DNA of 64,000 bases from positions 2,048,001-2,112,000 of the forward strand of contig CM097885.1 in assembly GCA_044892525.1 (NCBI GenBank), in the 5' to 3' direction. Position 1 is the stretch's first letter. Each line of letters begins with the position of its first letter. This document shows, one piece after another, positions 10,340 through 63,853 of the stretch. The stretch is from Schmidtea polychroa (taxonomy: Eukaryota). The translations under genes were made by a program, and so were the position numbers. The notes under the pieces were generated by a model, which was given only the letters and a program-made list of their open reading frames with translations, was not told the origin of the DNA and did not search any database.

Positions 10340-10467
<128 letters not shown>

Positions 10468-10489
10468 GTAATAAAAATAATAATAATAA

Positions 10490-11155
10490 TTGAATAAGTC
10501 CAAGAAATGGTATAACAATTTTATTGGCATCCAAAGGGCCACGTGGATCAGTTTTGAATAATAACCGTTTGTCCATTTCAATATCATGAGGTAATGCCAT
10601 CATTGACCGAAATTGAATGAAATCAAGACCTAATGGTCGCATCTCAGCCGATTGGGTATAGAGCTTATTAATATCCGCAATAGAACGACATATTATGTCA
10701 CAAGGCATTGCATATCCAATTTTAGATTTAAATCGAGCTGCTTCCACTTGTGCACGACATACTTGAGATCGACAATCAGGGATCATACCAATCATAACAC
10801 CTCCAGTACTTTCAGTAATGTTAAACAATCTTGTGGCTGAACTCTTCTCAATCATTTTATCTGGAACTTTTCTCTTTGCATATCTATCGATTTCATTAAG
10901 CCAATTTTTAACATTGTTAAACGAATCTTGATCGGTAACATCAAACACAACAATAATTCCATGAGCTCCTCTGTAATAAGACGAGGTTATAGTTCTAAAT
11001 CTTTCTTGACCTGCTGTATCCCATATTTGCAATTTCATAGTTTCACCATTTCCAGTATAAGAATCATCTGCAGGTCTGAATAATAAACAAGATTTTCCCA
11101 CACCAGAATCTCCAATTAATAGAAACTTGACTAAATAGTCACACTCTGGATTCAT
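10490..11155 (-). pseudogene. Intronless chimeric ORF: Rab1 N-terminal half (switch I deleted) fused to a proteasome subunit alpha-6 fragment, running into (TTA)n
   Basis: [25 protein letters not shown]...[27 protein letters not shown]...EIDRYA matches Rab1; [35 protein letters not shown] matches PSMA6; junction near 10877. Confidence 0.88.
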
Positions 11156-11590
11156 TTAATTATTGCCAACGTCCGGTTTCAAATAAAAGCTTATTATAAT
11201 TACAATTATAATTACCAAGAATTCCAGCACAATTCCAGAAATTTCACCAATTTAAACCATTCCAATAATCTCCTCAGATAAACAAAAATTCACAAAAATC
11301 CAATATAGTTTCTACAAATAATTTCATAAAATTTACAAAACACACAGAAAATCCAACCTACTTCTCGCGCCTGTGTGCGCACACCAACCATATTCGAACA
11401 AAACCAGACCGCGCACACAGACGCGAACCAAAAGAAGCATCCAACAAACTGCCAGTCAGAGGTGAGTGACATTCCCCCTCTGACTGGTCGAAACAAATAA
11501 TAATAAAGTATAAAGTGATGATTTCTTGGTAGCAGCATTTATTATTTAAAACAATAAAATGATAATTTAAGCCTTTTGCTACAAATAATG

Positions 11591-11672
11591 TATTTAATGA
11601 AAAAATTTTCGACTATAAGATAGTCCTTGGAGATTGGCAAGGACTATCTTATAGTCGAAAATTCTTTCATTA

Positions 11673-11676
<4 letters not shown>
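11591..11676. repeat. Near-perfect hairpin, 39-bp arms and 8-nt loop
   Basis: 11591-11629 is the reverse complement of 11638-11676 with one mismatch. Confidence 0.9.
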
Positions 11677-19896: not shown

Positions 19897-37070
<17,174 letters not shown>

Positions 37071-58504: not shown

Positions 58505-59530
58505 TAATTGGCCTGGCGGGCTCACACTTTTTTTCATCCCAAAAATTAATGTTCTCGTTAACAGATTTTATTGACCGATACCTCATCTTAAAGCACAGTC
58601 CAAGACCTTTCGAATGAGCTATAGGTATCATATATATCTTTAATAGTTTTAATGTTATTAACAATTGATGACCACCATCTTTTCAACGTTAAATTATTAT
58701 TATTTTCCAAAATATTATTAATTGGCCTGGCGGGCTCACACTTTTTATCATCCCAAAAATTAATGTTCCTACCAACGGATTTTATTGGACGATACCTCAT
58801 CTTAAAGCTCAGTCCAAGACCTTTCGATTGATCCATAGAAGGTATCATCATCATTAATATTGACAAAGTTATTAACAATTGATGACCACCATCTTTTCAA
58901 CGTTAAATTATTATTATTATTCAAAATATTATTAATTGGCCGGGCGGGGACATACTTTTTCTCATCCCAAAAATTAATGTTCCCATTATCCGAATTTATT
59001 AATCGATAGCTTATTTTGAAGCGTAGTCTAAGACCTTTCAATTGAGCCATAGAAGGTATCATCATCATTAACATCGGCAAAGTTATTAAAGTTTTACCGA
59101 GACCATTTTTCAAGGTCATTTATTATTTTCAAGGTCATTTAATTTTTTTTTCAAGGTCAAGGTCAAATTTTTAATAAAAGGTCAAGGTCATTTATTATTT
59201 TCAAGGTCATTTTTTTTTTTTTTTTTTTATAATTATGTGGCCGGGAGGGCCCCTACTTTTTTTCATCCCAAAAATTAATGTTCCCGCCAACAGATTTTAT
59301 TAATCAAACACTTATTTTAAAGCCCAATGCAAGACCTTTCGAATGAGCTAATGAAGGTATCATCATCATTATTATTGACAAAGTTATTAACATTTTACCA
59401 AAAATCATTTTCAAGGTCATATAATTATTAATTGGCCTGGCGGGCCCCTACTCTTTTTCATCCCAAAAATTAATGTTCCCATTATCCGACCTTTCGAATG
59501 AGCCATAGAAGGTATCATCATCATTAATAT
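58505..59530. repeat. 214-bp tandem repeat in the Maverick terminal region (about 5 full or partial copies)
   Basis: taattggcc..catcccaaaaattaatgttc at 58505, 58719 and 58933, with partial copies near 59236 and 59429. Confidence 0.9.
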
Positions 59531-59800
59531 TAACAAAGAGAATGACTCACCCAATGACTCACCCAACGATGTCTAATATTTTTAGAACGATGACTCATCA
59601 AGGTCAAGGTCAAATTTTTAATAAAAGGTCAAGGTCATTTATTATTTCCAAGGTCATTTATTTTTTCAAGGTCATTTATTTTTTCAAGGTCATTTAATTT
59701 TCAAGGTCATTTATTATTTTCAAGGTCATTTATTTTTTCAAGGTCATTTATTTTTTCAAGGTCATTTACTTTTCAAGGTCATTTAATTTTCAAGGTCATT
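59110..59800 (+). promoter_or_regulatory. Array of about 19 YCAAGGTCA motifs plus three TGACTCA motifs
   Basis: Counted by eye; clusters at 59110-59210, 59411 and 59598-59798; TGACTCA near 59543, 59555 and 59591. Regulatory role is inferred. Confidence 0.6.
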
Positions 59801-59841
59801 TATTAAAATAATTATTATTTTCTAAGTTTTTAGTTTCTAAG

Positions 59842-61020: not shown

Positions 61021-61485
61021 TTAATTAAGTGATAATAAAAAATCTAAAAATTCTTTTCCTTCAATTATTGATTTAATTTCAGATATGATATTATCAACTA
61101 TACTTTTGTAATCAATATTTTTTATTCCAAGAATTACTATCTTACCGCTAGCGAATATATTTACACACATAGGGTTATATTTTATATATCTCAAAGCTGG
61201 AAATAATTCTGGTTCATAAAAGCATGGTATTAATTTAGCTAATTTATTTAAATTACAAGAAAAACCTATATCGGAAGTTACGGTTATCGATTGTATTTCT
61301 AAATCATAAACATTATATTCACTAGCTTTGATTATTTCCTTACACCCCATAATTCTACATTTACCAGTTTTGAAATATATTATTGGATATTTATTACTTC
61401 TATTGATAAGTTGTTGTGGTTTCCCTATTGGAAATACCATTTTTGATACATCAGTTTTTGCCCTGTAATTTATATTTGAAAGCAT
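61021..61485 (-). CDS. TATA-binding-protein-like protein encoded by the Maverick
   Basis: Two TBP-like repeats: IIYFKTGKCRIMG and FYEPELFPALRY..VNIFASGKIVILG (compare TBP YEPELFPGLIY..LIFVSGKVVLTG). Confidence 0.85.
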   Translation of the reverse strand: MLSNINYRAKTDVSKMVFPIGKPQQLINRSNKYPIIYFKTGKCRIMGCKEIIKASEYNVYDLEIQSITVTSDIGFSCNLNKLAKLIPCFYEPELFPALRYIKYNPMCVNIFASGKIVILGIKNIDYKSIVDNIISEIKSIIEGKEFLDFLLSLN

Positions 61486-61589
61486 TTTAATGAAATAATT
61501 TTAAAAACTTTGATATATATAGGTATTTAAAAACAGAGTTCATTTAAATTATCAATATAAACAATAATTATATAGTTTAAATTTAAAAA

Positions 61590-62228
61590 ATGGAATTACG
61601 AAATGATGCAGTATACCAAATCGTTGGTCCAAGTGGTAGCGGGAAAACTTTATTTGTTTGTAAATTACTAAAATCAAATTTGTTTAAAACAAAATTCAAC
61701 AATATTTATTGGCATAGGGGCGCCGACGAAGAACACGGATTGACGCAATCAAGTTTCTGTCAGTTGAAAAACATGAAAATAGTAAAGGGCTTTGATAAAA
61801 ACTGGTCAAGTCGTTTGAAGAAAGATGATGTCATCATTATCGATGATTTGTATCAAGAAGTCAATAAAGAAAAGGACTTTAATAATTTATTCACAAAAAT
61901 CAGCAGACATGTTGGTGTAACAGTTATTTTCATAACACAAAATCTATTTCATCAAGGTGGTGCACATCGAACACGTAATTTAAATGTACAATATTTAGTT
62001 ATTTTCAAGAATCCTAGAGATGCAACTGTCATTGATTTTCTTGGACGACAAGCATACCCTAATAACCGTAATTTTCTTATCAGTGCATTTCAAGATGCCA
62101 CGAAAATACCGCATGGGTATATATTTCTCGATTTCACACAACAATGCCCTGATGATATACGGGTAAAAACAGATATTTTCAACCCAAAAGGTGCCATGGT
62201 ATATAAACAAAGTTCAAAACAAAGTTGA
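61590..62228 (+). CDS. A32/FtsK-like DNA packaging ATPase
   Basis: Walker A GPSGSGKT, Walker B VIIIDD, SRH, ITQNLF, RNLNVQYLVIFKNPRD, PHGYIFLD. Confidence 0.93.
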   Translation: MELRNDAVYQIVGPSGSGKTLFVCKLLKSNLFKTKFNNIYWHRGADEEHGLTQSSFCQLKNMKIVKGFDKNWSSRLKKDDVIIIDDLYQEVNKEKDFNNLFTKISRHVGVTVIFITQNLFHQGGAHRTRNLNVQYLVIFKNPRDATVIDFLGRQAYPNNRNFLISAFQDATKIPHGYIFLDFTQQCPDDIRVKTDIFNPKGAMVYKQSSKQS

Positions 62229-62241
62229 AAACATATAAATC

Positions 62242-62736
62242 ATGTTTTCAAAAACAAGGATATCGGGTAAAAAACAACCAAAAGTTCCACCAACAACTAG
62301 TTATACTCCATCTAAAGATCTTATTACAGAAAATTTTCCTGCAATGAATCTTATTTCGAAAAATCCTAAACCTAAACCTAAAAGTAAAACCACTAAGAAA
62401 GTAAAAGTTGTTAAAAATCATCGGAGTTTCCCGTTTTTCAATACATTGTTAAAGGCACCAAGTATGAAAAGAAACAGTATTTTGCAATCATTTCCAAATT
62501 ATGTTGTCGATGATTTACTCGATATTATACTTAAAGTAGTCAAAGGCAAGATTAAAATCAGTAAATCTAAAAAGCAATTATTGAGTAAACATAGGAAACC
62601 TTTGCTATCATTAGTAAATAATAAAAATCGTCAACAAATGAGAAAAATTATATATAAACAACAAGGGGGATTTATCGGTGCATTGATACCTTTAGCAATA
62701 TCATTATTAGGTGGAATAATAGGAAGTCGATCATAA
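62242..62736 (+). CDS. Basic Maverick virion-type protein with a C-terminal GG/F site and amphipathic helix
   Basis: Lys-rich; ends QQGGFIGALIPLAISLLGGIIGSRS. Confidence 0.7.
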   Translation: MFSKTRISGKKQPKVPPTTSYTPSKDLITENFPAMNLISKNPKPKPKSKTTKKVKVVKNHRSFPFFNTLLKAPSMKRNSILQSFPNYVVDDLLDIILKVVKGKIKISKSKKQLLSKHRKPLLSLVNNKNRQQMRKIIYKQQGGFIGALIPLAISLLGGIIGSRS

Positions 62737-62797
62737 ACAATGGGTGCTAATCCTTCATTACCAGACATTAAATTTAATATTAAATCTTCTTGTTGTA

Positions 62798-63853
62798 ATG
62801 GAGAAGATTTGGACGAACCCGGAAGACGAAGCCGGTTTTGGTGGAGTGGCAAAATTAAGGAAAAGAGTTCCGAATTCGAAAAAGGAAACACAGAAGTGGT
62901 TATCAGACCAGCTTGCGTACAGTTTGAACAAACCAATGCGGAAACGATTCCCAACAAGAACATATAAAACATATGGAATAAATGATTTATGGCAAATGGA
63001 TTTGATGGAGATGATACCCTATTCGAAAATTAACAATGGGTATAAATATATTTTAACATGTATTGATGTATTCAGTCGGTTTGCCCGAGCAATACCCGTC
63101 AAGGCAAAATCTGCAGATGAAATGTCCAAAGCTGTTAATCATTTATTTAAAGATGGACATCCTAAAAACTTGCAAACTGATTTAGGTATTAATATTATTA
63201 TTTTTATTATTATTATTATTATTTTAGGTAAAGAATTCTACAACAGTAAAGTCAAGCAAATCCTCAATAAATTGAAAATAAACCATTACTCAGTACATTC
63301 TCAATACAAAGCTGCTCATGTTGAAAGATTTAACCGAACTTTGAGAGATAGATTAAAGAAATTATTCGTGCATCAAGGTAATAAAAAATGGGTATTGGTT
63401 TTACCAAAAATAATAACCAGTTATAATCACTCATCACATCAAGGACTGAATGGATTAAGGCCGATTGATATCACGTCAAAAACAATCTATTCTAAAAAAC
63501 CTGAAAAAATTACAAAACCGAAATATAAAGTAGGTGACCATGTTAGAATTAGTAAAATTAGTGCATCACCATTTATTAAAAATTTTGATACGAATTGGAG
63601 TGATGAAGTCTTTGTAATTTCAAAAATAAATACTAAACAGAATCCTGTAATGTATGTCATCAAAGACAATGATAACAATATTGTACAAGGAAAATTTTAT
63701 GAACAAGAATTACAAGTTATTCCTCCCCCAAAAGTATTTAGAATTCAGAAGATATTGAAAACTAAAAATAAAGGCAAGGATAAACAATACTATGTCAAAT
63801 GGCATGGTTATCAAAACCCATCATGGATATCAGAAAAGGATCTAGTAAAGTGA
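62798..63853 (+). CDS. Polinton retroviral-like integrase with C-terminal chromodomain; probable 42-nt intron at 63186-63227
   Basis: WQMDL, CIDVFSRF, LQTD-G-KEF, VERFNRTL, YN..H, KVGDHVRI, FYEQELQ, YYVKWHGY..SWI; first ATG at 62798. Confidence 0.95.
   Translation: MEKIWTNPEDEAGFGGVAKLRKRVPNSKKETQKWLSDQLAYSLNKPMRKRFPTRTYKTYGINDLWQMDLMEMIPYSKINNGYKYILTCIDVFSRFARAIPVKAKSADEMSKAVNHLFKDGHPKNLQTDLGINIIIFIIIIIILGKEFYNSKVKQILNKLKINHYSVHSQYKAAHVERFNRTLRDRLKKLFVHQGNKKWVLVLPKIITSYNHSSHQGLNGLRPIDITSKTIYSKKPEKITKPKYKVGDHVRISKISASPFIKNFDTNWSDEVFVISKINTKQNPVMYVIKDNDNNIVQGKFYEQELQVIPPPKVFRIQKILKTKNKGKDKQYYVKWHGYQNPSWISEKDLVK

Follow-up and report, generated by a model that had tools for sequence, protein, structure and literature searches.

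Spliced host mRNA pieces in the long terminal repeats of a Schmidtea polychroa BEL/Pao retrotransposon family share one reading frame with ubiquitin-Gag

We analyzed a 64,000-nucleotide stretch of the Schmidtea polychroa genome (contig CM097885.1, positions 2,048,001 to 2,112,000; hereafter the window) together with related copies in the genome. The region at 10491-11495 on the minus strand, which encodes a fusion of parts of Rab1 and PSMA6, is a 1005-bp solo long terminal repeat (LTR) of a BEL/Pao retrotransposon and no stand-alone cassette. We consider it probable that the interior of these LTRs, a mosaic of spliced host mRNA in frame with ubiquitin-Gag, is a translated leader tolerant of varied sequence, with a predicted cut at the Gly-Gly end of ubiquitin. 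A first-pass annotation, made from the sequence alone, had described a Rab1-PSMA6 cassette captured by a mobile element. It missed that the cassette is an LTR, that its cargo is interchangeable and that its frame continues into ubiquitin-Gag.

The window copy is a solo LTR

A search with this region gave 45 matches from the best 40 of 2459 candidates. Twenty aligned copies begin sharply at TG (11495 in the window), most end at CA (10491 in the window), and many are flanked by 5-6 bp target duplications. Among copies of the window LTR, one has a primer-binding site (PBS) after it, and in two a polypurine tract and the end of a BEL/Pao integrase come before the LTR; elsewhere the LTR flanks PBS and gag. 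The identification as a solo LTR rests on these sharp shared ends, the target duplications, the PBS, the polypurine tract and the BEL/Pao domains of relatives. Unique 5-6 bp duplications flank many solo copies and two paired elements; those of the window copy are ambiguous because it sits in a microsatellite. Its left target-site copy (ATTATT on the minus strand, 11496-11501) is weak for this reason, and its right one (10485-10490) is the beginning of a flanking ATT array (10342-10490). The window copy would be the remainder after recombination between two LTRs, with everything downstream lost. We rejected a SINE-like element with an ATT tail and a Helitron/Helentron, because the copies end at CA and have unrelated flanks and target duplications.

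The LTR opens with a conserved 5' part that holds an 11-bp-stem hairpin (11452-11487; arms 11487-11477 and 11462-11452) and an inverted motif pair forming a long stem (11365-11426; arms 11426-11411 and 11380-11365, one mismatch), both located as in the first-pass annotation. The hairpin has a shorter loop or no stem in some copies. The first 146 nt of the window LTR have a fold z-score of -4.4, and 0 of 200 shuffles were equally stable. The core motif of the inverted pair lies upstream of 27 of 30 PBS loci and is the most widely kept LTR motif; the pair is a candidate promoter or RNA signal. The LTR hairpins matched no known RNA family at gathering level, and four weak matches all fell on a neighboring palindrome. 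This palindrome (11591-11676, 39-bp arms, 97% complementary) lies in a repeat just outside the LTR, and two other copies of the window LTR (L010, L014) adjoin the same palindrome-bearing repeat.

Downstream of the conserved part, all on the minus strand, follow a captured Rab1 5' UTR (11156-11212, by BLASTn against the parent locus), a spliced Rab1 coding piece (10875-11155), a spliced PSMA6 coding piece (10538-10873) and an LTR 3' end of about 47 nt (10491-10537) with AATAAA at 10525-10520 and the terminal CA. Elsewhere, the window contains a 34-bp tandem array (32106-32735), tandem repeats containing TCAAGGTCA (59107-59804) and, at 61024-63850, ORFs that by eye resemble Polinton-type genes (packaging-ATPase-like and integrase-like).

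A recently active BEL/Pao family

The first 21 bases of the LTR have 839 exact copies in the genome, and a 22-mer across the LTR end and PBS has 298 (control 0 for each). Family members encode domains in BEL/Pao order, namely DUF1759 (Gag), RVT_1, Peptidase_A17 (the Pao RNase H region), rve and DUF5641. Every pol region inspected is split over several frames. A candidate aspartic protease motif was seen by eye between Gag and the reverse transcriptase, for which Pfam gave no call. In 8 of 10 LTR pairs compared, the two LTRs hold matching cargo, 95.8-99.9% identical, which indicates that cargo spreads by ordinary LTR replication and that the family moved recently. In the other two pairs, the LTRs diverge beyond the first 110-170 bp.

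The PBS matches the 3' end of a host tRNA-Met gene, which we take to be of the initiator type. Genes for this primer tRNA form a large tandem array with a 454-bp period (L171-L173, G000:C1 near 79.33 Mb), and a pattern search gave 1228 matches genome-wide. About 40 bases past the PBS, most elements have a conserved splice-donor-like motif. In retroviruses, a splice donor can suppress the poly(A) site of the 5' LTR, and by analogy the motif could act in this way here. Four sequencing runs listed no joint of a candidate donor after the PBS to an acceptor before ubiquitin, which is uninformative on its use.

A sister BEL/Pao family (L142, L143, L153, L170 and others) has a very different Gag. It shares the primer site and PSMA6 cargo, and has a separately diverged ubiquitin ending in Gly-Gly. 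We also observed pol-less elements of about 4.4-5.3 kb (L011/L021, L057, L071, L116, L128) in which an additional ubiquitin, closer to canonical, precedes the conserved one. An ATT/AAT/AT microsatellite adjoins 33 of the 75 LTR starts (L043-L132) that lack a polypurine tract, compared with 6.7% of window positions; target preference and retention bias are both possible causes.

The cargo derives from spliced host mRNAs

We located both parent genes, Rab1 at locus L133 and PSMA6 at locus L139, and both have introns; the top matches of PSMA6 agree with a flatworm host. The earlier description of an intronless fusion holds: all six introns tested are absent from the LTR copies. Their spliced junctions occur in 20, 21, 8, 31, 11 and 27 of 116 LTRs, and their exon-intron borders in 0 of the 116. 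Such exon-exon junctions within the LTRs of a multi-copy BEL/Pao element bear out the earlier proposal that a mobile element captured spliced mRNA. A decayed partial PSMA6 duplicate with stops was also found (L140, G000:C3 near 79.62 Mb).

The window copy keeps the Rab1 5' UTR and start codon (11212-10875). Its Rab1 coding piece begins at the host ATG and covers host residues 1 to ~110 (Pfam Ras, E 1e-30). The PSMA6 piece covers host residues ~53-158, and its best PDB matches are proteasome alpha type-6 (human chain residues 54-139). A stop-free minus-strand frame runs from the ATG at 11155 for 221 codons to the LTR end, confirming the in-frame fusion. The first-pass annotation had also described a short third segment. 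It holds no third host gene, a candidate that we rejected because the segment aligns to the PSMA6 parent: PSMA6 runs on to 10538 with an 18-nt insertion and is followed by the LTR end. When the fusion served as a protein query, Rab-type proteins made up all of the best 120 among 7985 scored matches, a listing that is uninformative on fused forms elsewhere.

The annotated loss of the Rab1 switch I region proved to be a 51-nt in-frame deletion near 11050, common to 22 of 37 aligned LTRs. It arose after capture, since other LTR copies keep the segment. Exon skipping was rejected as its source because the breakpoints fall within exons 3 and 4 and because the segment is intact in those other copies. 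The Rab1 cargo thus lacks switch I and everything past residue ~110, and the fusion joins two truncated folds. A functional Rab1 or PSMA6 retrogene, which would have a complete domain under purifying selection, was rejected on the truncation of both pieces.

Captures are in the sense orientation: 0 of 112 antisense ORFs have a Pfam match. Of 27 sense ORFs in frames other than that of Gag, 2 have one. The sole switch point inspected, the Rab1/PSMA6 junction, has a short A-rich similarity, seen without a chance control. We infer template switching as the capture route.

We also weighed a one-off processed pseudogene and a chimera of the assembly, and the window copy does adjoin a microsatellite. 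The genome-wide copy count suggested in the first-pass annotation refutes this reading together with the LTR structure, and we give it almost no weight. We counted 76 exact matches, spread over four chromosomes, to a 31-mer across the Rab1/PSMA6 junction (control 0); the copies have unrelated flanks and target-site duplications. A contig of an independent DNA run also spans the junction, extending 39 letters to one side and 30 to the other. The proposed RNA check yielded a hint only: in run X14, which we guess to be RNA and whose Rab1 contig is intron-free, two 59-nt pieces cover the junction with fewer than 31 letters on one side. Other contigs of this run fall on gag, the PBS and both ends of the LTR. 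Run X9, from a second organism, has no cover across the junction and is uninformative either way.

The cargo is interchangeable

The LTRs share a layout of a conserved 5' part, differing host pieces and a loosely conserved 45-base 3' end. We scanned 93 ORFs from LTR regions, some of which may fall outside the LTR itself. Pfam matches comprise Ras, proteasome, dual-specificity phosphatase, CCT, LIM, adaptin N (COPG-like by eye), DEAD, JAB, cofilin, WD40, RING, zf-Nse, ClpP, myotubularin, SelR and ubiquitin; 39 of the 93 have no Pfam match. EAP30 was seen in a further set of 14 ORFs. Cargo sits inside both LTRs of elements and in solo LTRs, and ubiquitin is an internal capture. Where pieces of different genes meet, the native frame is held across the junctions Rab1-PSMA6, Rab1-CCT, PSMA6-ClpP, PSMA6-MsrB, LIM-Rab1-PSMA6, cofilin-WD40 and EAP30-PSMA6.

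Host fragments carried by sister LTRs in place of those in the window copy include a DUSP-type phosphatase, CCT, COPG-like, LIM, ClpP, MsrB, EAP30 and more. The window holds a second LTR of a sister subfamily at ~29121-30020 on the plus strand, which has the same inverted motif and in which PSMA6 (Pfam proteasome, E 1e-24) follows a different N-terminal piece. In two elements (L126 and L032), a DEAD-box helicase-like fragment lies between the LTR and ubiquitin, in the linker or leader, which implies capture just outside the LTR too.

One reading frame leads into ubiquitin-Gag

At 8 of the 10 LTR/PBS junctions inspected first, the cargo frame stays open across the LTR end, the PBS and a linker rich in AT until it reaches ubiquitin, and the window ORF exits its LTR in the same frame as Gag. 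We sampled 30 PBS loci, the first of the 298 by position, with four tandem duplicates and a sister family included. The Gag frame is the longest upstream open frame at all 30, and spans at least 100 codons at 24 of 30, compared with 0 of 60 for the other frames. A ubiquitin motif is present at 26 loci; 18 read through into ubiquitin and 12 do not. A callable LTR end was available for 51 of 116 LTR starts, a set in which 16 rows were chosen by likeness to the window copy and a few ends may be miscalled. Among these, the Gag frame is longest in 50 and spans at least 100 codons in 43, compared with 0 of 102 for the other frames; the copies are related and include tandem duplicates, and all these frame counts are of non-independent events.

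The ubiquitin ends in Gly-Gly directly before Gag, and this dipeptide is kept in 22 of 22 and 14 of 15 matches in the two families (duplicates included). The tails before Gag are non-canonical, with Arg74 replaced in both families and Arg72 in one. One pol-bearing copy has only the C-terminal half of ubiquitin in frame. An internal Met of Gag lies about 43 residues past ubiquitin.

Selection on cargo, ubiquitin and Gag

Changes in the cargo that are shared by at least two copies include 1 stop among 130, and single-copy changes 13 among 238, with ~5.6% expected. The depletion of shared stops gives a binomial p of ~0.005, calculated on copies that are not independent. All five shared indels are in frame, compared with 7 of 15 single-copy indels. 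The cargo pairwise dN/dS is 0.63-0.74; for eight unselected Rab1 copies the value is 1.48, and for Rab1 cargo against the host gene, which itself evolved under constraint, it is 0.26. The cargo tolerates amino-acid change and avoids stops and frameshifts, and the values of 0.26 and 1.48 leave weak constraint ambiguous.

These patterns bear on the idea that the cargo is untranslated U3 filler whose agreement in frame was inherited from one or two founding captures. The copies are related, PSMA6 is common to many, and a piece of host coding sequence starts out as an open frame. Against this, the native frame is held at no fewer than seven different junctions between genes, stops and frameshifts are under-represented among shared changes, and the AT-rich linkers between PBS and ubiquitin, although of different lengths, remain open. 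We regard filler as very improbable.

A role of the cargo in its own right, as decoy or dominant-negative fragments, as a shield from piRNA silencing or as a source of small RNAs against the parent genes, also appears improbable, if less so. It could account for the recurrence of PSMA6 in many subfamilies and the sister family, for the several cargoes that touch proteostasis or trafficking and for the Rab1-host dN/dS of 0.26, and captured fragments are described as working via small RNAs in other systems in the sections considered here of PMC9674220 and PMC13317346. However, the fragments are truncated and further deleted, as in the loss of switch I in the window copy, their pairwise dN/dS is far above that of Gag, recurrence can reflect one old capture, and roles at the RNA level need no Gag frame.

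The ubiquitin adjoining Gag is as constrained as Gag: dN/dS is 0.17 and 0.35 for ubiquitin and 0.17 and 0.30 for Gag in the two families, whose Gags are very different. By this measure, the additional ubiquitin that pol-less copies carry upstream, with its canonical tail, is relaxed (dN/dS 0.72), and has lost Gly-Gly in 2 of 6 cases. The ubiquitins of the two families are saturated at silent sites (pS 0.86).

The leader could be translated while ubiquitin stays on Gag as a fixed domain, serving to aid folding or as a tag for trafficking or turnover; the element's own protease would then take off the leader, or it would stay in place. This is unlikely in our judgment, though it is the alternative that we take most seriously. 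The non-canonical tails before Gag, the purifying selection on the whole ubiquitin domain, the protease-like motif and the relaxation of the extra canonical-tailed ubiquitin all speak for it. The position of Gly-Gly exactly at the Gag border in two families with silent-site saturation speaks against it, as does the pol-bearing copy that keeps only half of ubiquitin in frame. Moreover, deubiquitinases read the whole fold, and constraint on the domain therefore fits cleavage too.

A proposed capture and expression cycle

For the preferred reading, a cleaved leader, we propose the following steps. Transcription would start in the conserved first 100-250 bp of the LTR, placing the cargo in an unusually long R region that ends near AATAAA. 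While copying this long R, the reverse transcriptase may switch onto co-packaged host mRNAs and back, and the switched product would be copied into both LTRs. Translation would begin inside the LTR, in the window copy at the ATG of Rab1 itself; if so, only in-frame, stop-free captures would still yield Gag and spread. A host deubiquitinase would then free Gag with a fixed N-terminus whatever lies before it, and this presumed step would make the cargo swappable. Several observations count against this reading: non-canonical ubiquitin tails may slow deubiquitinases, the element has a candidate protease motif of its own, Gag has the internal Met, 12 of the 30 sampled PBS loci lack read-through, Pfam matches occur in 2 of the 27 sense ORFs in other frames, and two of the ten LTR pairs diverge.

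More tentatively, the LTR may be a standing gene-capture slot, a possibility that we put somewhat short of even. The heads of host mRNAs would start Gag, the domesticated ubiquitin would free it, and in-frame chimeras would be built, expressed and spread in hundreds of copies, as in an exon-shuffling engine with a frame filter.

Comparison with known systems

We compared the family with previously described systems, as presented in the sections of the cited papers considered here. BEL/Pao elements, including the planarian Flow families (PMC3118150), have the same domain set and order, TG...CA LTRs, 5-6 bp duplications, a tRNA primer site and a polypurine tract. The present family is set apart, by description, by an LTR interior of exchangeable host mRNA, a Gag frame that begins in the LTR and ubiquitin before Gag; the word ubiquitin is absent from the main text of that paper. 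LTR-mediated retroposition (Tan et al. 2016, PMC5131818) likewise yields partial spliced mRNAs, multi-gene chimeras, sense orientation and further copying rounds, and one case there involves a Pao element. However, in the cases that the considered sections describe, the retrocopy replaces part of the internal ORFs and copies are rare, whereas here capture takes place in the LTR throughout the family and is linked to the Gag frame. Maize Bs1 (PMC13317346, PMC5131818) is also an LTR element with pieces of three host genes in one translated chimeric frame, but it is a single fixed mosaic flanked by an LTR element, and the same sections describe neither a swappable LTR interior nor a ubiquitin border.

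Insertions in cytopathogenic pestiviruses (PMC8310069) resemble the LTR family in placing captured host mRNA and N-terminally shortened ubiquitin before a viral protein. There, according to the sections considered, host ubiquitin hydrolases cut the product to an authentic N-terminus, and cleavage was shown. Pestiviruses are RNA viruses in which such recombinants are sporadic and the tail is canonical, whereas here the arrangement is a standing feature of retrotransposon families and cleavage is only predicted. The giant Burro/GYPSM1 elements (PMC6431247) are also planarian LTR elements with host-like domains, one of them ubiquitin/SUMO-like. In the account considered, they differ in belonging to the gypsy superfamily, with fixed domains inside a giant internal polyprotein and no LTR cargo. 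Our literature search, the scope of which lay outside Repbase reports, the 2018 planarian genome paper and supplements, found no description of the LTR-cargo system, nor do the considered sections of PMC9674220, PMC8532177 and PMC11410931 describe it.

Implications

If the proposed reading is true, an LTR element can tolerate, and even use, constant capture of host genes, with a cleavable ubiquitin uncoupling Gag from the leader. The LTR cargo would then be a natural record of the mRNAs that enter retrotransposon particles, and the LTR chimeras a testable source of new chimeric proteins. In this animal, gene annotation, read mapping and analyses by RNAi or of piRNAs can be misled by Rab1, PSMA6 and other housekeeping fragments, which exist as hundreds of LTR copies.
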